Source: an uncultured Candidatus Saccharibacteria bacterium (GTDB lineage Bacteria > Patescibacteriota > Dojkabacteria > SC72). Taken from it: a stretch of DNA of 64,000 nucleotides. Under the pieces are notes generated by a model, which saw nothing but the letters and a program-made list of their open reading frames with translations, was not told where the DNA came from and made no database searches. A program made the translations under genes and the position numbers. Location of the stretch: positions 68,174 to 132,173 of the forward strand of contig CAYOME010000002.1 of NCBI GenBank assembly GCA_964405015.1. The letters run 5' to 3'. Below are positions 1-41,262 of this stretch, in pieces. How positions within the stretch are numbered: the first letter of the stretch is position 1; every line of letters starts with the position of its first letter.

Positions 1-467
1 GTACTCTTTTAAATTTACATATTGGTACTGTTGAAAGATATATAGACCTTTTAGAAAAAAACTATGTAATATTTAGATTACCACCATATTACACAAATGA
101 AAGGAAAGTACTTTCTAAACAAAACAAAATATATTTCTATGACTTAGGAATTAGAAATGCATTGATTAATAACTTTAATCCACTTAGCAAAAGAAGTGAT
201 AGAGGTGCTCTCTGGGAGAACTTCCTAATATTGGAAAGGATGAAAATGAATGCATATTCAAAGAGGTATGTATCAAAGTTCTTTTGGAGAACATACGATG
301 GTGCAGAGGTTGACTATATTGAAAAGTATGCAGATTCTCTAGAGGGATTTGAATTTAAATGGAGTAAGGTTAGGAAGGCACCAAAGAGTTGGTTAGAGTA
401 TCCAAATGCTACATACGAGCTAATTAATATCGATAATTTTAAAAAGTTTTTAAATATATCTAATTAA
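1..467 (+). CDS. AAA+ ATPase (DUF4143 C-terminal domain), 5'-partial. The frame is open from the window start and the track ORF begins at TTG 162.
   Basis: In-frame translation from base 3 gives ...TLLNLHIGTVERYIDLLEKNYVIFRLPPYYTNERKVLSKQNKIYFYDLGIRNALINNFNPLSKRSDRGALWENFLILE..., typical of the DUF4143 part of AAA_14 ATPases. No stop before the window edge. Confidence 0.55.
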   Translation, partial: TLLNLHIGTVERYIDLLEKNYVIFRLPPYYTNERKVLSKQNKIYFYDLGIRNALINNFNPLSKRSDRGALWENFLILERMKMNAYSKRYVSKFFWRTYDGAEVDYIEKYADSLEGFEFKWSKVRKAPKSWLEYPNATYELINIDNFKKFLNISN

Positions 468-486
468 AATATTTTTAAATATATAT

Positions 487-1569
487 ATGAAAGCATTAAT
501 ACTCGCAGGAGGAAGAGGAACAAGATTAAGACCCCTTACACATACAAAAAACAAACATATGTTACCCTTAGGTAATAGACCAATGATAGAGAGGATAATA
601 TTGGATGCAATAGATCTAGGAATAAAAGACATCATTATCAACATTAACAAAGGAGACAAAGAAATGCCTGAATTACTTGGAGATGGTAAAAGATTCGGAT
701 GTAAGATTTCTTACATAGAACAACCAGAACCAAATGGAATGATGTATCCAATAAAGTTAGCAGAGAAACTAATCGGTAACGAAGAGTTCCTCTTCTCAGC
801 AGGAGACAATATCCTAACAGGAGGTCTTAAACAACACTATGAGGATTTTAAAAAGAAGAAATCAGATGCTCATGTATTAGTAGTTAAAAGACCTGACTAT
901 CAAAACTTTGGAGTAGCTGTAATGAAAGATGGAAAGATTGTAAAAACAGTAGAGAAACCAAAGGAGTTTGTAAGTGATTTAGTACTCTCTGCTATATATT
1001 TCTTTACACCTGCAGTATTTAAAGCTTTTGATCATGTAAAACCAATAGATCCTAAAGGAACAGGAAAACCAGAATACTACCCACCAGTAATTAATAACTG
1101 GTTAATAGAGAATGGATATACAATGACAGCATCAGAAGTAACAGGATGGTGGAAAGATACAGGAGCACCAGAAGACCTGATACTTGCTAATAGATTAATA
1201 TTGGAAAGAGAAGTTTTAGATACTTGTGAAGGAGAGTTAGTAGACTCACATATTGAAGGTAATGTAGAGATTAAAAAGGGGGCTAAGATAAAGAATTGTA
1301 CGTTAAGAGGTCCAATCTCCATTGCAGAGAATGCTGTTGTAGAAGATTCATACATAGGACCTTTTACATCCATTGGTGCTGATAGTGTGGTTAAGAATGT
1401 AGAAATTGAAAATAGTATTCTAATGGGTAATTGTAATGTACATGATTTAGATAGGAGACTTGATAGCTGTTTAATAGGATGGAATGCGGAAGTAACTAGT
1501 AAGAGTGGCCATCCTAAAGCAGATAGGCTCTTTATAGGTGACGACTCTAAGGTAGAGATAAGTAGATAG
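487..1569 (+). CDS. Sugar-1-phosphate nucleotidyltransferase (RmlA/glucose-1-phosphate thymidylyltransferase-like) with a C-terminal left-handed beta-helix
   Basis: N-terminal MKALILAGGRGTRLRPLT...K..LP motif of the NTP_transferase family. C-terminal hexapeptide-like repeats (IEGNVEIKKGAKIKNCTLRGPISIAENAVVEDSYIGPFTSIGADSVV). 360 aa. Confidence 0.7.
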   Translation: MKALILAGGRGTRLRPLTHTKNKHMLPLGNRPMIERIILDAIDLGIKDIIININKGDKEMPELLGDGKRFGCKISYIEQPEPNGMMYPIKLAEKLIGNEEFLFSAGDNILTGGLKQHYEDFKKKKSDAHVLVVKRPDYQNFGVAVMKDGKIVKTVEKPKEFVSDLVLSAIYFFTPAVFKAFDHVKPIDPKGTGKPEYYPPVINNWLIENGYTMTASEVTGWWKDTGAPEDLILANRLILEREVLDTCEGELVDSHIEGNVEIKKGAKIKNCTLRGPISIAENAVVEDSYIGPFTSIGADSVVKNVEIENSILMGNCNVHDLDRRLDSCLIGWNAEVTSKSGHPKADRLFIGDDSKVEISR

Positions 1570-1570
1570 A

Positions 1571-2218
1571 TTAGAAATATCTACCAGAATGTTTACCATA
1601 TTGAATAATCTGATCTAATGCGGTACGAATGTTCGGGAATTCTTTTAATAGGCTTCTTTTGCACTGAATAGCCACTACAGTGCGATTACATTCAAACAAG
1701 TTCTTCATCTCTTCTACAAAAGTCCCAGTATATGCTAAATCCCAATTAACAAATTGTTTATCAAATTGCTTTATTTGTAATTCTAAATATTTAATAGGAA
1801 CAAGGAGATGGCCTGCAAAAGAATTAGCATCTTTTTCTATTTTATCGTATACAGAATTTTTGATACTCTCCATCCTCTTAAGATATTCATCCTTGTCTTT
1901 AATATCTGAGAAGAGATCCCTATGAAGAATATAGTGGCCGATTTCATGGCTAAGTGAAAACCTTAGTCGTTCTCTGCGACTATCCTGTGTGTATAGGGAT
2001 TCATCTATAACTACAACCTTATTACCCACTGTAAGAAAAGCTTCACCTCCATTTGAGAATTCAGATTCAAGTTGAGGTAAAATGTAGGGTTTAAGCTTCA
2101 GTCCTAATTCCATAATTTCTTCAACATCAATAGGGAGAGGGACTTCTTTTTTGTAGTAATCTTCTATCGTAGATAGTGCGAGATTTTTAATTTCCTCTTG
2201 GGTTCTTTGGGGGGACAC
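1571..2218 (-). CDS. ImmA/IrrE-family (DUF955) zinc metallopeptidase
   Basis: HEIGHYILH (HExxH) motif in a ~215-aa protein. Immediately downstream of and overlapping an XRE-HTH gene, the classic ImmA/ImmR arrangement. Confidence 0.6.
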   Translation of the reverse strand: MSPQRTQEEIKNLALSTIEDYYKKEVPLPIDVEEIMELGLKLKPYILPQLESEFSNGGEAFLTVGNKVVVIDESLYTQDSRRERLRFSLSHEIGHYILHRDLFSDIKDKDEYLKRMESIKNSVYDKIEKDANSFAGHLLVPIKYLELQIKQFDKQFVNWDLAYTGTFVEEMKNLFECNRTVVAIQCKRSLLKEFPNIRTALDQIIQYGKHSGRYF

Positions 2219-2651
2219 GATCTGGTGCAGTAATAAGTTTAAGTAAATCTTTTAAATCTTTCTCAGTAATTTTCTTTCCTCTCGCTTTTCGAAAAAATGC
2301 AGGTAAAATTGATAAATTGGATTGTAAATCCTGCGGTATTTCACCTCTGCTAATATCGGCTAAATCACACATATATCCATATTCTTCTGAATCGATTTTT
2401 ACACCAATTGCTTTTGCTACTTTCTTTAAGAAAAGCTTGCTCTTAGGTACTTTAAGAAGATTGTTCTCAATTTTACTTACTTGTGCAGGATCAAAATCAT
2501 ACTTTCTACAAAACTCTCTTAGGGTAAGATTTTTTGAGACTCTTTCATTGTAAAGCATCTCTCCAAATGAGGAGTAATCTTTTTTCATACTGTTTGATAT
2601 TTTTAACTTAGGCAGTTGGTACATTCTAATACAGAAGTTCTGTGTTGTCAA
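2187..2651 (-). CDS. XRE-family helix-turn-helix transcriptional regulator
   Basis: HTH_3-like segment LTLREFCRKYDFDPAQVSKIENN. 32-nt overlap with the downstream ImmA gene. Confidence 0.55.
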   Translation of the reverse strand: MTTQNFCIRMYQLPKLKISNSMKKDYSSFGEMLYNERVSKNLTLREFCRKYDFDPAQVSKIENNLLKVPKSKLFLKKVAKAIGVKIDSEEYGYMCDLADISRGEIPQDLQSNLSILPAFFRKARGKKITEKDLKDLLKLITAPDRVPPKNPRGN

Positions 2652-2699: not shown

Positions 2700-3035
2700 T
2701 TGATGAGGAAATATCAACATAAAAATCTTGCAAGTGGAGATTGGAATAAAAAATCATTCCTCGAACAAATGGCAAACATTGGTAGTGAGGTATACCGAGC
2801 TATTAACTGGAAGAACAAGGGTAATGAAGAATATGCACATATGGCATTTGTAAGATCACTTGAACTTTTTGATTTAACTAAGGATTCTAAACTAACATAC
2901 CCTCAATACAAAGAACTTTTAAGAATGAGAGAGATATGGGTAGACTTTTTCAAATATGAAAATGAATATAATTCTACCGGAGAGTCTCTTAATACATACT
3001 TTACAAACCTTACAGTTGCTTTTAAAAACAGATAA
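2700..3035 (+). CDS. Hypothetical protein (111 aa)
   Basis: ORF only. It is in the same reading frame as the RmlC ORF and separated from the conserved RmlC N-terminus by a single TAA. Confidence 0.35.
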   Translation: MMRKYQHKNLASGDWNKKSFLEQMANIGSEVYRAINWKNKGNEEYAHMAFVRSLELFDLTKDSKLTYPQYKELLRMREIWVDFFKYENEYNSTGESLNTYFTNLTVAFKNR

Positions 3036-3101
3036 CTTTTTTACTTATATATAGAATTTAAACCATTAAGTATTCCTGGATTAGTACTAATAACACCGAA
3101 T

Positions 3102-3626
3102 GTGTTTGGAGACAGTAGAGGCTTCTTTAAAGAAACATACAACAGAGAAGTATTTCAAGCAAATGGAATAGATATAGATTTTGGTGTACAGAGTAATCAT
3201 TCTAGATCTTCAAAAGGTGTGCTAAGGGGTATGCATTGGCAAAAAGAGCCATTTGCACAAGACAAATTAGTACGTGTTTCAAGGGGAAGAGTATTGGATG
3301 TAGCAGTAGACATTAGAGTAGGTTCTCCTACATTTGGTAAGTATGAAGCAGTAGAGCTTTCAGATGAAAACCACTATATATTCCTCGTACCTAAAGGTTT
3401 TGCTCATGGCTTTTTTGTATTGAGTGATATCGCTGATTTTGAATATCAGGTTAGTGCACCATACAACAAAGAAAATGAGGTGGCTCTTCTTTGGGATGAT
3501 CCAGATATCGGTATAGAATGGGGATTTAGTGAGGGAGAGCAACCACTTCTTTCTGAAAAAGATAGAGTAAATAAATTACTTAAAGATATAGATCCAGAAG
3601 ATCTTTTTAAATTTGTACATAAATAG
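3102..3626 (+). CDS. rmlC: dTDP-4-dehydrorhamnose 3,5-epimerase (RmlC). The conserved N-terminus extends in-frame upstream to ~3036 without a canonical start codon.
   Basis: VFGDSRGFFKETY...GMHWQ...RVLDVAVDIR..SPTFGKYEAVELSDEN...FLVPKGFAHGF. Cupin-type RmlC signatures. The track start is GTG 3102. Upstream in-frame residues EFKPLSIPGLVLITPN match the usual RmlC N-terminus. Confidence 0.8.
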   Translation: MFGDSRGFFKETYNREVFQANGIDIDFGVQSNHSRSSKGVLRGMHWQKEPFAQDKLVRVSRGRVLDVAVDIRVGSPTFGKYEAVELSDENHYIFLVPKGFAHGFFVLSDIADFEYQVSAPYNKENEVALLWDDPDIGIEWGFSEGEQPLLSEKDRVNKLLKDIDPEDLFKFVHK

Positions 3627-4488
3627 GATGGAAAGAATATTTGTATTTGGTTCAAGCGGTATGTTAGGAAACTACCTTTGTACACTGTTAGAAAGTAAAG
3701 GATATGAAGTAGAGAGAAATGATAGGACTTCCGGAGGGATAGATATTACTAAAGATGATGATGTAAGAACGGTAGTAAAAGATTCTGATGCAAGATTTGT
3801 AGTTAACTGTAGTGCATATACAAATGTAGAAAAGGCCGAAGAGGAAAGTGATATAGCTTTTGATGTAAATGCTAATGCTCCTAAATATATGGCACAGGCT
3901 TGTAAAGAATTTAATATTCCATTTGTTCATGTATCTACCGACTATGTATTCGGTGAAAACAAAGAGGATGGATATACGGAGGATTACAAGACCTTTAAGC
4001 CATTGAATGTATATGGTGAGTCTAAATTGGAAGGAGAAAAGGGGGTTCTAGAAGTCGGTGGTCAGGTATATATCTTTAGAACATCATGGTTGTTTGGACC
4101 TAATGCAACAAATTTCATAGAGAAGATATCTAAATATGCAAGAGAATTACCCGAATTGAAAGTAGTTACAGATGAGGTCGGTTGTCCAACATACGTAGGA
4201 GATCTTTCTAAGCATATACTTTCTGCAATACAAGGAGATATAAAACCTGATATATACCATGTGTGTAGTAGGGATATCTGTTCCAGATATGAATTTGCAA
4301 AAGAGATATTAAATATTCAAGGTATTGATACCCCAGTATTAGAATCTAAGTTAAAGGATTTTAATAGAAAGGCACAAGTACCTAATCGTTCTCAACTTCT
4401 TAATACAAAATTACCTGAAATGAGAACATGGAAAGAGATGCTTAGGGAGTATTTTGGTGTTCCGGATATTTCGGTTGTTGAAAAATAG
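3613..4488 (+). CDS. rmlD: dTDP-4-dehydrorhamnose reductase (RmlD)
   Basis: MERIFVFGSSGMLG... Rossmann N-terminus, YTNVEKAEEE, VSTDYVFGENKEDGYTEDYKTFKPLNVYGESKLEGE (YxxxK), RTSWLFG. 14-nt overlap with rmlC. Confidence 0.8.
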   Translation: MYINRMERIFVFGSSGMLGNYLCTLLESKGYEVERNDRTSGGIDITKDDDVRTVVKDSDARFVVNCSAYTNVEKAEEESDIAFDVNANAPKYMAQACKEFNIPFVHVSTDYVFGENKEDGYTEDYKTFKPLNVYGESKLEGEKGVLEVGGQVYIFRTSWLFGPNATNFIEKISKYARELPELKVVTDEVGCPTYVGDLSKHILSAIQGDIKPDIYHVCSRDICSRYEFAKEILNIQGIDTPVLESKLKDFNRKAQVPNRSQLLNTKLPEMRTWKEMLREYFGVPDISVVEK

Positions 4489-4520: not shown

Positions 4521-4573
4521 GGAGGAATACGAGCCATTGTCTATGTGACAATGTGTGTACGCCCTCCTTTTTT
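4521..4573 (+). terminator. Hairpin plus T-run, candidate intrinsic terminator for the rml transcript
   Basis: ggagg...CATTGTCtatgtGACAATG...ccctcc followed by TTTTTT. A perfect 7-bp inner stem with imperfect outer arms, between convergent rmlD (+) and the NYN gene (-). Confidence 0.4.
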
Positions 4574-5104
4574 GTACCTCAATTTGTCCTTTTCATATTG
4601 TATGTAGGTTTTGTATTGGGAAAAACCTTTTAGTAGAGAAGATTCCGATTTTGAATTAGGTATTATTATTGATTTTAATTTGTTCTCTTCCTGCAAAAAT
4701 TTGTGTAAACAAAGAAAGTCACCATCTCCGGATACAATTACTGCATTATCAAAGTTTTCATATTCTATTCTGCAGGAGTATAAGACGAGTTCTGCATCTA
4801 TATTTCCTTTAGATTTACCATCTTTGCTAATTACAGTTGGTTTAAAGATTAATTCGTAACCAGATTTTTTAAGTGAAGAATAAAGGAGCTCATTGTTTTT
4901 TAGGTAACCAATAAAAAGGAGAGCCTTCTCTACAAAGAATTTATGCTTAAGGTATATTCTAAATTTCCTAAAATCTAATTTCCAACCTCTATATATTATT
5001 TTATTACCTCTGTATATAGATTTTGATGTTCCGAGATTTAAATTCTGACTATCGATAAAAGCATAAGTTCGCTCTCTTTTTTGTGTTTTTTTCGTTTTTA
5101 TCAT
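4541..5104 (-). CDS. NYN-domain (LabA/DUF88-like) protein, putative RNase
   Basis: AFIDSQNL near the N-terminus, GNIDAEL, VIVSGDGDF. These are the conserved acidic residues of the NYN/PIN-like fold. Confidence 0.5.
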   Translation of the reverse strand: MIKTKKTQKRERTYAFIDSQNLNLGTSKSIYRGNKIIYRGWKLDFRKFRIYLKHKFFVEKALLFIGYLKNNELLYSSLKKSGYELIFKPTVISKDGKSKGNIDAELVLYSCRIEYENFDNAVIVSGDGDFLCLHKFLQEENKLKSIIIPNSKSESSLLKGFSQYKTYIQYEKDKLRYKKGGRTHIVT

Positions 5105-8538: not shown

Positions 8539-10709
8539 TTTTTGATATTGCAGTAATTACAGTACTATTCGTGATAGTAATAGATATTGTATTTTTGTTT
8601 CTTTTCCTTTTTGATAAAAAATTCGCAAAGATTAGGAAATTCTCTTTGGTAATATTCTCTGTAATTCTTTGGGGTGTTACTCAAATATTGGTATATATTT
8701 CTAGGGACTTAGAATATAGCTTGCTTTACGCTAAAATAGGTTATGTAACGGTATTGCTACTGGTAATATCCTTTTATTTTTTTACTGCTTCTCTAACAAA
8801 CCTTCGTTTAAAGATTGGTCCAATTATTTTTAGTGTAATATTTTTCGTTCTTAATCTCTTTACTCCTTTTTTAGTTTCTAAAGCTGAACTGATTGATGGG
8901 AAATATATAGTATTTACAAATACTGCTATTGGTCAGATTGTATTTTTATTATTAATTTTTTATTTTATCTCTGTAATATTGATATCTTTGCATAGATATT
9001 TTTATTTAGAGAGTAAAAAATTAAATGAGAAGTTTGCGATTCTTTTCCTTATCGTTTCAATTGTATTAAGTGCTTTTTTGATAATCATATTTAACATCGT
9101 TATTCCGACCTTTATTAGCGGTAATCAGATGATGTTTCCATTAATTGGATTCAATTCATCCTTAGTATTCACTTTAGCATCTGTTTATGTTTTCTCAAGA
9201 GAGTCATATTTCGGTTTCCGTTTTATTTTCTTCAAAGCTGTTATCGGTGTTGTATTAGTAGTTTTTGCATTTATTTTCGAGATGTTAATTATGTTATTAA
9301 CTAGTTCTAAGGCAAATTTGGGGGATATTAATATATTCTTAAAACTTCTTTTTATTAATATCATTTATTCAATTGTATTTTCATATGGGATATTTACTTT
9401 GATACCGAAGTACAGGAAAGCGTTTGTTAATAGGGGGATTGAACCTGATGAATATATTATGGAATTAGAGAATGAATTGATTCCTGTTAATACGATAAAT
9501 AGGGCATTGTTTACGGTTGAGAGGCATATGGAAAAGTATTTTGATATTTCTGATGTTTTCTGGATTACTCCTACAAGTGATGGTATATCAAACAAAGAAG
9601 AAATAGATTTGTTTGATAAATTTAAGGATATTAAATCTGATCCTGAAGAGCTTATTGTCGTTAGGGATACTAAGCTACGTGATGATAGTGTATTAGACAG
9701 GATGGGTGCTAATATTATTATGCCTGTGCAAACGGGGGATAAATTGTTTGGTTTTTTTGTACTGTCTACTGATAAGTCTAGACTTTTTTATGAGGAAGAG
9801 TTGAGAATTCTTAAAAAGCTTATGATTTTTATTGTTTCCTCGTTTATTAGAATTTCGCTATATACAGAAATTGAGGTATTTAATCAGACTTTAAAGCATA
9901 AGGTAAATGAACAAACAAAAGAATTACAGGTAAAGATTAAAGAATTAGAAGAGGCTAGAAAGAAAGAAGCAGATATGATTGATATCATGGGTCATGAATT
10001 AAGAACTCCTGCTACTGTAGTTAAACTTAATGCTGAGTTGTTAGAGAAATTTGTAGGTAGTAATCCTGCAGATTTTAAGAAATATTTGGATAGGATTAAA
10101 GATTCTGTACAAACAGAAATTGGATTAATAAATACACTACTTACTTCTGCTAAGTTGGAAGGTGATAAGGTTGAGATACAGGCAGGTAAGGTAGATATAA
10201 AGGCAGAAATAGATATGGCTTTGCATGGTCATGAGGTTGATTTAAAAGAGAAGGGGTTAGAGTTTGTAAATAGGGTAGATACAAATACTCCAGAAGTATA
10301 TGCAGATAAGGTAAGGGTAGTTGAGGTATTAAATAACTTAGTGAGTAACGGTATCAAGTATACAGAAAAGGGTAGTATTACAATCACTACGGAGTATGAT
10401 GACAAGTTTGTAAAGATATCGATACAAGATACAGGTAAGGGTATACCTAAAGAGAATTTAGAAAAGCTTGGTGGTAAGTTCTATAGAATTGACAATTATC
10501 TTGGTTCTGAAATTGTTAGACCAGGTGGTACTGGTTTAGGTTTGTATGTTACCTTTGGTTTAGTAAAGTTAATGGGTGGTGATATATGGGTAGAGAGCGA
10601 AGTAGGGAAGGGTAGTAAATTTACATTTACCTTACCTATATACAATGGTCAGGTTATTAAATCTTCTGATTCTAGTAACATGTTTGAAAAACTAGGATTA
10701 AAGAAATAG
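8535..10709 (+). CDS. Sensor histidine kinase with a large N-terminal polytopic membrane domain
   Basis: About 8-9 predicted TM helices. Then a coiled coil, HisKA H-box MGHELRTPATVV, and HATPase_c with N-box NGIKYT and G-boxes DTGKGI / GGTGLGLYV. No response regulator nearby. Confidence 0.75.
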   Translation: MIFDIAVITVLFVIVIDIVFLFLFLFDKKFAKIRKFSLVIFSVILWGVTQILVYISRDLEYSLLYAKIGYVTVLLLVISFYFFTASLTNLRLKIGPIIFSVIFFVLNLFTPFLVSKAELIDGKYIVFTNTAIGQIVFLLLIFYFISVILISLHRYFYLESKKLNEKFAILFLIVSIVLSAFLIIIFNIVIPTFISGNQMMFPLIGFNSSLVFTLASVYVFSRESYFGFRFIFFKAVIGVVLVVFAFIFEMLIMLLTSSKANLGDINIFLKLLFINIIYSIVFSYGIFTLIPKYRKAFVNRGIEPDEYIMELENELIPVNTINRALFTVERHMEKYFDISDVFWITPTSDGISNKEEIDLFDKFKDIKSDPEELIVVRDTKLRDDSVLDRMGANIIMPVQTGDKLFGFFVLSTDKSRLFYEEELRILKKLMIFIVSSFIRISLYTEIEVFNQTLKHKVNEQTKELQVKIKELEEARKKEADMIDIMGHELRTPATVVKLNAELLEKFVGSNPADFKKYLDRIKDSVQTEIGLINTLLTSAKLEGDKVEIQAGKVDIKAEIDMALHGHEVDLKEKGLEFVNRVDTNTPEVYADKVRVVEVLNNLVSNGIKYTEKGSITITTEYDDKFVKISIQDTGKGIPKENLEKLGGKFYRIDNYLGSEIVRPGGTGLGLYVTFGLVKLMGGDIWVESEVGKGSKFTFTLPIYNGQVIKSSDSSNMFEKLGLKK

Positions 10710-10718
10710 AATTGGGGA
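10684..10718 (+). repeat. 35-nt direct repeat, copy 1 (includes the histidine-kinase stop codon)
   Basis: ttgaaaaactaggattaaagaaatagaattgggga. A second copy at 11023-11057 has 1 mismatch. Confidence 0.8.
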
Positions 10719-10763
10719 AAGTATATTATACGATAGATACTTTTATTTTTAATCATTCTTTGT

Positions 10764-11012
10764 ATGAAGTTTGATGTTTCGATCGGAGACCAAAAGGATA
10801 GTAAAAATTATGAAATTGAGTTTTTTGTAAAAGCCACTCAGGAAGCTTCAGATAAGGATAGGGAAAAGATATATAAAATAATCCGTATTATTGACTCTCT
10901 TGGAGATGATACTGTAGACGAAACTAGTGATAAAGATTATCGATTCCAAACAGATCAAGATGAAGGTATCGATTTGTTAAATGGTGTTCTAGAAGAGAAT
11001 TTGTCACAATAG
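10764..11012 (+). CDS. Small acidic hypothetical protein (82 aa) bracketed by 35-nt direct repeats
   Basis: ORF with D/E-rich sequence. Flanked by a duplicated HK 3'-end segment. Confidence 0.4.
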   Translation: MKFDVSIGDQKDSKNYEIEFFVKATQEASDKDREKIYKIIRIIDSLGDDTVDETSDKDYRFQTDQDEGIDLLNGVLEENLSQ

Positions 11013-40281: not shown

Positions 40282-41262
40282 ATGAAGCTAATAACTGGGG
40301 CTACAGGAAGAATAGGGTATGTATTAGTAATGGAATTAAATACCAGAAAAGAAAAAGTAAAAGTATTAGTAAGAGAAGGATCGAGTAGAGAATCTTTAAA
40401 AAACTTCAATTGTGAATATGTACAGGGAGATATATTAGACACATCAAAATGGGAAGATTCATTAGAGAATGTCGACACGATATTTCATTTGGCAGGTAAC
40501 ATTAATATTTCAAGTAAGGGAGCTGACCTTACAATGGATACTAATGTACAAGGTACTAAAAACATTGTAGATATATGTCTCAAAAAAGGTATAACCCTGG
40601 TATATACATCCTCCATACATGCTCTTTCTGCACCTGCTGATGGATCATTAATTGATGAAAATACTCCATTCTGTTTAGATACTAATGAAAGAAGGGGTTC
40701 ATATGATTGTTCTAAAGCTATGGCTACAAAGTATGTACTTGAAGCTATGAAGAAGGGTTTGAAAGCTATTATCGTGCATCCAACAGGTGTAATAGGTCCA
40801 TATGATATTAGACCATCTTTCTTTGGACAGGGAATAGTTCAATTAGTTAACTCTGATATTAAACTAAGCATAGGTGGTAAGTATGACTATGTTGATGTCA
40901 GAGATGTTGTAAATGGTATGTTGACTGCTTTAGAAAAAGAGAAGTTTGGAGAAAGATATATCCTTTCAGGAGAGGTTCTAACTATGTCAGACTATGCAAA
41001 ATATTTAAGAGAATTTTCAGGTATAAAAGGTAATACTACAATTTTAGGATATGGTATTAGTATGCTGTTAGCATATATATCAACAATTGCTCAGAAAGAA
41101 TCACAGATTACTCCATATAGTGTTAAAACATTGTATAGTAATTGTAATATATCTCATCAAAAAGCAACTGAAGAGTTAGGATATGCACCTAGATCTGTAA
41201 AAGAGTCTCTTCGTGATCAATATGAGTGGTTTAAACTAAATGGATATTTTAATGCAAAGTAG
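40282..41262 (+). CDS. NAD-dependent epimerase/dehydratase (extended SDR family)
   Basis: ITGATGRIG Rossmann motif, catalytic YDCSK (YxxxK). ~326 aa. Confidence 0.65.
   Translation: MKLITGATGRIGYVLVMELNTRKEKVKVLVREGSSRESLKNFNCEYVQGDILDTSKWEDSLENVDTIFHLAGNINISSKGADLTMDTNVQGTKNIVDICLKKGITLVYTSSIHALSAPADGSLIDENTPFCLDTNERRGSYDCSKAMATKYVLEAMKKGLKAIIVHPTGVIGPYDIRPSFFGQGIVQLVNSDIKLSIGGKYDYVDVRDVVNGMLTALEKEKFGERYILSGEVLTMSDYAKYLREFSGIKGNTTILGYGISMLLAYISTIAQKESQITPYSVKTLYSNCNISHQKATEELGYAPRSVKESLRDQYEWFKLNGYFNAK

Follow-up and report, generated by a model that had tools for sequence, protein, structure and literature searches.

What is a repressor and protease gene pair of the kind known from phages doing in the middle of a sugar-nucleotide operon? 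The question is raised by a stretch of 64,000 nucleotides (nt) from an uncultured bacterium of the Dojkabacteria (contig CAYOME010000002.1, positions 68,174 to 132,173; from here on, the window), in which the genes for an XRE-family helix-turn-helix (HTH) protein and an M78 zinc metallopeptidase are located on the minus strand between rmlA and rmlC of the dTDP-rhamnose genes. To our knowledge, almost nothing is known about gene regulation in the Candidate Phyla Radiation (CPR, or Patescibacteria), whose members are not culturable alone. Switches made of an XRE repressor and an M78 protease, on the other hand, are well understood in Bacillus elements, in Deinococcus and in the loci of cyclic oligonucleotide-based antiphage signalling systems (CBASS). 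The pair described here belongs to this well-known class, and its location inside a rhamnose operon is the unusual part. The answer that we favour, and consider probable, is that the pair is a two-gene switch, laterally acquired and still intact, of the immunity type used by phages and integrative and conjugative elements (ICEs), consisting of an XRE repressor and an M78 peptidase without GAF domain, which replaced a DUF5674 gene in a narrow lineage of Dojkabacteria.

A check of the open reading frames (ORFs) of the window found both minus-strand ORFs at the coordinates given by an earlier interpretation made from the letters alone (the sequence-only reading). That reading had called them an XRE-HTH gene and a gene for an ImmA/IrrE-type peptidase of the M78 family, a call borne out by Pfam, PADLOC, a confident structure model and a fold search. 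The peptidase gene (1571–2218, minus strand, GTG start) encodes 215 amino acids (aa) and matches PF06114 (Peptidase_M78) with 34.4 bits (E 2.2e-8). The HTH protein matches PF01381 (HTH_3) with 30.1–30.7 bits (E 4.8e-7 at 30.1 bits). Both values are above the curated gathering cutoffs, which are 22 bits for PF06114 and 23 bits for PF01381, so that the hmmscan proposed in the sequence-only reading supports it. The HTH gene (2588–2187) comes first and is followed by the peptidase gene (2218–1571); the frames overlap by 32 nt (2187–2218), as had been described before, and the overlap is kept in relatives. Four details had to be corrected, two of which, the start of rmlC and the absence of rmlB, are taken up further below. 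The HTH protein had been given as 154 aa, starting from TTG 2651. This position is the first base of a near-consensus -35 box, and among seven independent contigs gene callers chose ATG 2588 in five, as well as in two more close strains with the same sequence. Therefore, the start is most likely ATG 2588, giving a predicted repressor of 133 aa (2187–2588, minus strand) with the HTH at residues 13–66, followed by a C-terminal domain. Furthermore, there are three genes and not two between rmlA and rmlC: besides the pair, a plus-strand gene, orf110 (2703–3035), had been overlooked.

The peptidase has the hallmarks of an M78 enzyme. Its HEIGH motif is encoded at 1934–1948 (residues 91–95), and the third zinc ligand, Glu128, sits in EKDANSFAGHLLVP and is the downstream Glu of the M78 motif E..AN.FA..LL.P. 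In an alignment of 77 homologs E92, H95 and H99 are invariant, and H91, E128, A131, F134, A135, L139 and P141 are at least 90% conserved. The AlphaFold2 (AF2) model built from a 77-sequence alignment (predicted local distance difference test, pLDDT, 92.7; predicted template modelling score, pTM, 0.90) consists of the core and three C-terminal helices (161–210), with nothing beyond. The top Foldseek matches of this model were IrrE (3dti, E 2e-5), PprI (8sln) and CapP (7t5t), each with a probability of 1.0, as was a match to the M78-like domain of a Mycobacterium tuberculosis regulator. In PADLOC the best match was capP (E 8.5e-19), covering only positions 5–125 of the 242 in the profile. Both the model and this coverage show that the 215-aa protein has no GAF domain, and a reading of its sequence found no cysteine between HEIGH and E128. 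CapP senses single-stranded DNA (ssDNA) through a groove between its peptidase and GAF domains, and about one third of its family members carry a cysteine-switch loop (Lau et al. 2022, bioRxiv 10.1101/2022.04.27.489752). With neither the GAF domain nor a cysteine in that interval, the ssDNA groove and cysteine switch of CapP are impossible in that form. The trigger of the window peptidase is thus probably different from ssDNA sensing, and activation may be mediated by a partner, as for ImmA, which responds to RecA or RapI.

That the pair came from elsewhere is indicated by the organisation of related rml loci, a comparison of synteny which the sequence-only reading had put forward as a check. 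In the genomes nearest to the window (L037, L009, L008 and L010, with RmlA 92–94% identical) and in at least 15 other Dojkabacteria, a tblastn map shows rmlA and rmlC contiguous, with a gap of about 20 nt, and the peptidase gene, the HTH gene and orf110 are all absent from the rml locus of these genomes. In L087, the locus most closely comparable to that of the window, the gene order is rmlB-rmlA-DUF5674-orf110-rmlC-rmlD. By blastn, window positions 484–1571 correspond to L087 4559–5646 (rmlA, 86% identity) and 2709–4457 to L087 6006–7755 (orf110-rmlC-rmlD, 79%). These breakpoints delimit a segment of 1,137 bp (1572–2708), which holds the peptidase gene, the HTH gene and the two promoters described below, and which stands for a 359-bp segment with DUF5674 in L087. 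In L111 the order is rmlA-orf110-rmlC and the slot is empty, and no DUF5674 gene was found elsewhere in the window. Because the breakpoints against L087 are clean and the same slot is occupied there by DUF5674, the pair is best explained as an acquired cassette that replaced DUF5674.

The first gene facing the pair, orf110 (110 aa, plus strand), is native to the locus. Among its 907 homologs the best 120 have 67–100% identity, and a DUF5674 gene (113 aa) is located directly upstream of orf110 in about 70 of 84 sampled loci, in many unrelated contexts. The two genes abut or overlap by 1 nt, down to 52% identity (L087 5660–6333; L088–L170), and form a near-universal gene pair in Dojkabacteria and relatives. 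The possibility that orf110 arrived as cargo of the cassette was ruled out by these 907 homologs and by the usual pairing with DUF5674. For orf110, which is conserved in Dojkabacteria, the AF2 model (pLDDT 88.4) is a four-helix bundle. It had no match in Pfam, NCBIfam, PADLOC or PHROG, none in the PDB by sequence, and no significant fold match for the model; DUF5674 had no NCBIfam match and no significant PDB match. In one contig, L006 (2458–2791, identical to L123), orf110 is split into two frames (84 aa and the rest), by a frameshift or an assembly error, and the adjacent pair is intact.

How the cassette moved is suggested by the mosaic identity between strains. Between L001 and the window, peptidase and HTH protein are 100% identical and orf110 is 98% identical, while RmlC and RmlD reach 87% and 89%. 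Such a pattern suggests exchange by homologous recombination between conserved flanks and, in the case of L001, a breakpoint near the orf110/rmlC boundary. The region 3' of rmlC also differs by lineage, with rmlD, a NYN gene and a glycosyltransferase family 4 (GT4) gene in the window and DUF456 and GT4 in L005 and L006. Moreover, the rmlA|rmlC junction (equivalent to window 1570/3050) is a hotspot of small cassettes across Dojkabacteria (L011, L015, L019, L022, L023, L030), which holds NYN genes in L011, L015, L019 and L030 and a SocA/Panacea antitoxin with a 134-aa partner in L023 and L030. Two possible traces of transposition were rejected. A 21-nt inverted repeat around the bicistron (1571–1591 and 2586–2606) is absent in L007, L171 and L172 and does not qualify as a mobile terminal repeat, and the weak AGATA(A/G) similarity at the two junctions is not convincing as a target-site duplication. 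The GC content shows no compositional anomaly over the cassette.

All close relatives of the peptidase, four clusters at 80–100% identity and one fragment among 5.8 billion proteins, share the arrangement rmlA | peptidase-HTH | orf110-rmlC, and the pair is found at the same place in lineages that have diverged to a dS of about 1. Both ORFs are intact in all seven contigs. Among three diverged lineages (window, L005/L006 and L007; dS 0.7–1.2) the ratio of non-synonymous to synonymous substitution rates (dN/dS) is 0.076–0.083 for the peptidase gene and 0.05–0.09 for the HTH gene. The adjacent rmlC has values of 0.08–0.17, so the pair is as constrained as rmlC. We conclude that the pair is functional and under strong purifying selection. 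Its flanks are homologous to ordinary rml loci, and domain scans of window positions 1 to 20.7 kb found glycosyltransferases, a histidine kinase, a flippase, DUF456, an M23 peptidase and SecA, and no integrase, transposase or phage gene.

More distant members of the family occur in other contexts. An exhaustive HMMER search yielded 1,824 peptidase relatives, mostly stand-alone proteins of about 200 aa, of which only three 50%-identity clusters reach an E value below 1e-30. Relatives of the HTH protein are few, and only 13 proteins reach an E value of 1e-5 or better. The nearest peptidases outside the rml loci, P0133 (41% identity) and P0134 (39%), are each preceded by an overlapping HTH gene of 138–140 aa, the product of which is 53–56% identical to the window HTH protein; the two genes thus evolve together. 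In L171 the order is tRNA-Ile, pair, Xer-like recombinase, and in L172 two tRNA-Ala genes, pair, leuS. We also considered L171 as an integrative element. The recombinase is Xer-like and below cutoffs and a VirD4-like match is weak, so this locus is not usable as evidence for mobility. In L257, a peptidase 38% identical to that of the window (P0135) and its partner lie beside a divergent 83-aa DUF2188 gene. Among viral contigs, a scan with the peptidase profile found relatives at 26–44% identity only. One of the viral contigs, L356 (IMGVR_UViG_3300044673_000561), which carries a GpA terminase (290 and 219 bits), has a pair of this HTH-M78 family at 9703–10797 with about 35% identity. It is a candidate for a lysogeny switch, and the chromosomal cassettes may stem from it.

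The HTH gene and orf110-rmlC-rmlD diverge from a region of 114 nt (2589–2702), which holds promoter signals and a candidate operator. On the minus strand, the promoter of the HTH-peptidase operon (2623–2651) is composed of TTGACA (2651–2646), a spacer of 17 nt and TAGAAT (2628–2623), matching the consensus in 11 of 12 positions. Both hexamers are kept in the four sequences of the clade, and the -35 box also in L171 and L172. Overlapping this -35 box, at 2643–2663, lies a palindrome TGTTG-N11-CAACA, contained in TGTTGTCAATTTATTACAACA, partly within the interval 2652–2700 in which the sequence-only reading had suggested that operator repeats be sought. We regard it as the candidate operator of the HTH repressor, which would bind there. 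On the plus strand, an extended -10 element (TGaTATAAT, 2687–2695) marks the putative outward promoter of orf110-rmlC-rmlD, 7 nt before the ATG at 2703 and inside the acquired segment; its TATAAT is kept in all four clade sequences. This promoter was not listed by the promoter scan because its -35 box is weak. The candidate operator ends 3 nt before that putative -35 box.

The evidence for the operator is a footprint across lineages, because the frequency of the motif by itself is not significant. The arms are invariant in the window, L005, L007, L171 and L172, apart from one mismatch in L172 (pattern TGTTG-N11-CAAC(A/G)). These five sequences represent three unrelated contexts, all have TTGACAAC at the -35 box, and the intergenic DNA around it in L171 and L172 is otherwise unalignable with the window. 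In L257 two tandem exact copies are located in a divergent region of 77 nt. In phage L356 two tandem exact copies lie directly upstream of the HTH gene, a count reached in none of 200 shuffles. Besides the window, the operator is thus present upstream of pairs in four other genomic contexts, one of them a phage. When 258 loci (about 2 Mb) were searched, the exact motif occurred in 13, of which 11 are loci of this HTH-M78 family, where the motif immediately precedes the HTH gene; the two remaining ones are GC-rich and consistent with chance. A scan of viral sequences with the 14-base operator pattern gave more than 120 matches, and only two of these (L281 and L356) adjoin a pair of the family. 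A perfect palindrome in the promoter spacer, ACAGAAnTTCTGT (2630–2642), was also tried as operator and rejected, as it is not conserved in L005, L006 and L007. A further conserved element, TAAGTTAAA, is found in the leader (2602–2610, minus strand), 13 nt upstream of the HTH start codon. It is kept in the window, L007, L171 and L172, and L005 has TAAATTAAA in its place; the flanking DNA does not align across these loci. Candidate roles are a second protein site, an RNA element and a translation signal.

The repressor itself carries a candidate cleavage site. The partner HTH proteins have the motif LPAF[F/C]RKAR in common, which in the window is LPAFFRKAR (residues 95–103; codons at 2280–2306, minus strand). 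L95, P96, A97, R100, K101, A102 and R103 are invariant in five HTH sequences down to 53% identity, and LPAFYR is still present at 33% identity. In CapH, the cut falls between Phe82 and Arg83, where the C-terminal dimerisation domain begins (Lau et al. 2022, bioRxiv 10.1101/2022.04.27.489752). From the invariance of the motif and the analogy to CapH we propose Phe99|Arg100 as the site at which the repressor would be cleaved, and by homology with the characterised systems the peptidase would be the enzyme that cuts its cognate XRE repressor.

These elements can be arranged into a working model, of which the steps of repression and cleavage follow by homology or analogy from ImmA/ImmR, IrrE/DdrO and CapP/CapH. 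A repressor dimer would bind TGTTG-N11-CAACA over its own -35 box and keep the HTH-peptidase operon shut. On a signal, the peptidase would cut the C-terminal domain of the repressor, probably at LPAFF|RKAR, and thereby remove the part needed for stable DNA binding, so that the promoter would open. Since the cassette stands head to head with orf110-rmlC-rmlD and separates these genes from rmlA, the switch may also modulate the last two steps of dTDP-rhamnose synthesis. This last step, on which the others do not depend, we regard as possible and lean against it.

How does the pair compare with the known systems? It resembles ImmR/ImmA of ICEBs1 and phage phi105 of Bacillus subtilis in that a gene for an XRE repressor is followed by one for a small M78 (COG2856) peptidase without GAF domain, in that the repressor appears autoregulated and would be cut by the peptidase, and in having a relative in phage L356. 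Unlike ImmR/ImmA, it is accompanied by no integrase, excisionase or other element gene (1 to 20.7 kb) and is located inside a sugar-nucleotide operon, and outside the HTH domain its repressor shows no sequence similarity to ImmR that could be detected. With CapH/CapP it shares the best PADLOC hidden Markov model match of the peptidase (capP), the spacing of the zinc ligands (H91/E92/H95/E128 versus H96/E97/H100/E129 in CapP), a conserved aromatic-Arg motif in the partner that resembles the F82|R83 site, and the placement of the pair upstream of and opposite to a neighbouring operon, with an operator at the -35 region. CapP, in contrast, has 291 aa and is built of peptidase, HTH-like linker and C-terminal GAF domain, a plan to which the 215-aa window peptidase, lacking both the GAF domain and the cysteine-switch loop, does not conform; moreover, the operon beside the window pair encodes enzymes of rhamnose synthesis instead of a defence system, and its first gene, orf110, has no PADLOC, Pfam or fold match. 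IrrE (PprI) of Deinococcus gives the best structural matches, and the cleavage of an XRE repressor by an M78 protease, known for DdrO/IrrE, would be the common principle. However, IrrE has a GAF domain and a genome-wide regulon. In the 64 kb of the window a single exact copy of the operator was found, and the pair, with its patchy occurrence in relatives, is not a conserved core regulator. HTH-M78 pairs with divergent DUF2188 or DUF3892 genes (Burroughs & Aravind 2020, as cited in Lau et al. 2022, bioRxiv 10.1101/2022.04.27.489752, where this layout is listed among CapH/CapP-like systems) are represented by L257, which has exactly that layout and the same operator in two copies. The window has no DUF2188, and its divergent orf110 did not arrive with the pair. 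Finally, the Xre-COG2856 modules described as similar to toxin-antitoxin systems (PMC2701414) are likewise two-gene, mobile-looking operons of Xre and zinc peptidase with patchy distribution; a direct toxicity test in this class was negative, though (PMC4257102), and no RelE or PIN toxin gene is present in the operon of the window.

Capture of the pair as an acquired switch leaves room for different reasons why it has been kept. The sequence-only reading had suggested a stress-responsive switch recruited to control envelope-glycan genes. Its geometric part holds, with the pair head to head to orf110-rmlC-rmlD and the operator abutting their putative promoter; the control itself is unproven, and homologous pairs elsewhere lack such cargo. 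In its strict form, this explanation says that the pair is retained because orf110-rmlC-rmlD are under a stress- or phage-responsive switch, in the way in which CapH/CapP controls CBASS. It is rather unlikely in our estimate. CapH/CapP-like pairs are always placed upstream of and opposite to the operon that they regulate (Lau et al. 2022, bioRxiv 10.1101/2022.04.27.489752), and since the layout of the window matches this geometry, as does that of L257 with its divergent DUF2188 gene and two operators, it is plausible that orf110-rmlCD are controlled. The relatives have rmlA, rmlC and rmlD in one direction and with very small gaps, and therefore presumably transcribe them together; in the window the cassette parts rmlCD from rmlA and carries the only recognisable promoter before orf110-rmlC-rmlD, beside the operator. 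The position has also been kept at a dS of about 1, although the genes after rmlC differ. Several observations weigh against such control or against the proposed mechanism as a whole. There is a single operator, centred on the HTH promoter and about 49 nt upstream of the presumed transcription start of orf110, a position from which a bound dimer could lower, raise or leave unchanged the expression of this gene, and the exact motif, occurring once in 64 kb, is not significant by frequency. No terminator was predicted between rmlA and orf110, so that read-through from rmlA could still express rmlC and rmlD. The pairs of L171 and L172 have tRNA genes upstream and no divergent operon, which means that control of cargo is not general in the family. 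An ATA start codon of rmlC, described below, would be odd for a gene under selected regulation, and the known cargos are defence systems and not sugar-nucleotide enzymes. By sequence, the HTH protein matched generic XRE HTH domains only in the PDB, and thus its C-terminal domain cannot be equated with that of CapH, DdrO or ImmR; DNA binding, cleavage and trigger are, for this family, inferred from the characterised systems.

An explanation that does without the neighbouring genes is an orphan immunity module, in which the repressor would recognise the operator of related temperate phages and confer superinfection immunity, with the peptidase as its inactivator. Phage L356 with its two tandem operators fits this view, as do the stand-alone position of the pair, with no other phage genes nearby, and its patchy distribution among close relatives. 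We nevertheless judge it quite improbable: the phage pair is no more than about 35% identical, phages of this host are not known, and the peptidase, needless for immunity alone, is as constrained as the repressor. A selfish toxin-antitoxin cassette, with the XRE protein as antitoxin and the M78 protein as toxin, would share the small, overlapping and autoregulated genes, the sporadic distribution and the junction at which a Panacea-antitoxin cassette sits in L023 and L030 and NYN genes sit elsewhere. Indeed, Xre-COG2856 was listed among toxin-antitoxin-like pairs (Makarova et al. 2009, PMC2701414). The same study, however, argues that COG2856 proteins are proteases acting on the Xre repressor and not classical toxins, over-expressed pneumococcal COG2856 proteins were non-toxic in both Streptococcus pneumoniae and E. 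coli (PMC4257102), every characterised member is a repressor-cleaving protease, and the conserved motif of the F|R type in the partner fits a substrate. Addiction is therefore very improbable as the reason for persistence. The remnant of a mobile element, the other suggestion of the sequence-only reading, was right as to an origin elsewhere, to which the contiguous rmlA-rmlC of relatives, the DUF5674 slot and the phage homolog with the same operator point, and wrong as to decay. ImmR/ImmA-type pairs are typical of ICEs and prophages, and the homologous pair of L171 adjoins a tyrosine recombinase and a tRNA gene. That recombinase is Xer-like, however, and the window has no integrase, transposase or phage gene within 20 kb, no anomaly in GC content and a conserved promoter and operator. 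Above all, the intact ORFs in all seven contigs and the dN/dS of 0.05–0.09 effectively refute a decaying, now functionless ICE or prophage remnant, which we find hardly conceivable. The acquired and still functional switch thus remains the reading that we prefer.

The surrounding rml genes were assigned with the NCBIfam equivalog cutoffs. On the plus strand, rmlA in its long form (487–1569) scores 353.9 bits with TIGR01208 (cutoff 320.25) and is convergent with the peptidase gene, the two stop codons lying 1 nt apart; rmlC (3051–3626) scores 207.7 bits with TIGR01221 (cutoff 155.75) and rmlD (3613–4488) 230.4 bits with TIGR01214 (cutoff 224.05). The start of rmlC had been placed at GTG 3102. 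Alignment to relatives shows that the RmlC domain reaches back to 3051, and the next in-frame start, GTG 3102, would cost 17 N-terminal residues. In the start position (window 3048–3056) the window and an independent assembly, L002, have ATA, and L001, L005, L006 and L087 have ATG, the difference being a 2-nt change in a TA run (TATATATATGG versus TATATATAG). To judge from this codon, this strain may translate rmlC poorly. A NYN-domain gene (4541–5104, minus) lies on the other strand between rmlD and the GT4 gene; its homologs (55–63% identity) are placed elsewhere in other genomes, after rmlA, before orf110 or after orf110, as would be expected of a mobile accessory gene.

Whereas rmlA, rmlC and rmlD pass their cutoffs, no rmlB was found in the window. 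This absence, noted in the sequence-only reading, is most simply an effect of the window edge. The short-chain dehydrogenase/reductase (SDR) gene at 40282–41262 (plus strand), proposed there as the only candidate, reaches 49.7 bits with TIGR01181, for which the cutoff is 365, and was rejected; it is closest to HpnA-like sugar epimerases (219 bits, below cutoff) and is followed by a gene for a haloacid dehalogenase-type (HAD) hydrolase of the beta-phosphoglucomutase family. For comparison, the SDR upstream of rmlA in L087 scores 471.6 bits. In Dojkabacteria, rmlB is located upstream of rmlA, either directly (abutting it in L037, L009 and L087) or with a DUF4143 ATPase gene in between (L025, L111, L014, L026). 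At its left edge the window holds the last 152 residues of such a DUF4143 AAA+ ATPase (3–467, plus strand; 84% identical to the L111 copy), whose gene runs off the edge. From this and the gene order in relatives, rmlB is expected just outside the window. The DUF4143 ATPase gene is itself another accessory insertion in the rml operon.

If none of the readings given here were true, the locus would add a further orphan pair of the ImmR/ImmA type. The rml operon of Dojkabacteria is a hotspot of exchange, for NYN genes, a Panacea toxin-antitoxin pair, DUF5674-orf110, the DUF4143 ATPase and the HTH-M78 pair. The locus furthermore offers a compact, testable system with a candidate operator of 21 bp, a candidate cleavage motif and a protease without GAF domain. 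As a speculation that we think unlikely in its full extent, an episymbiotic CPR bacterium would have captured a phage-derived switch for the gating of orf110 and of the two final steps of dTDP-rhamnose synthesis, so that the surface glycan changes on a signal of stress or infection. Were this the case, a switch in the style of CapH/CapP would be set over a glycan serving as phage receptor or in host contact, instead of over a classical defence operon. Gating of rmlC and rmlD would thus link a stress or phage signal to the synthesis of surface glycans in an episymbiont.

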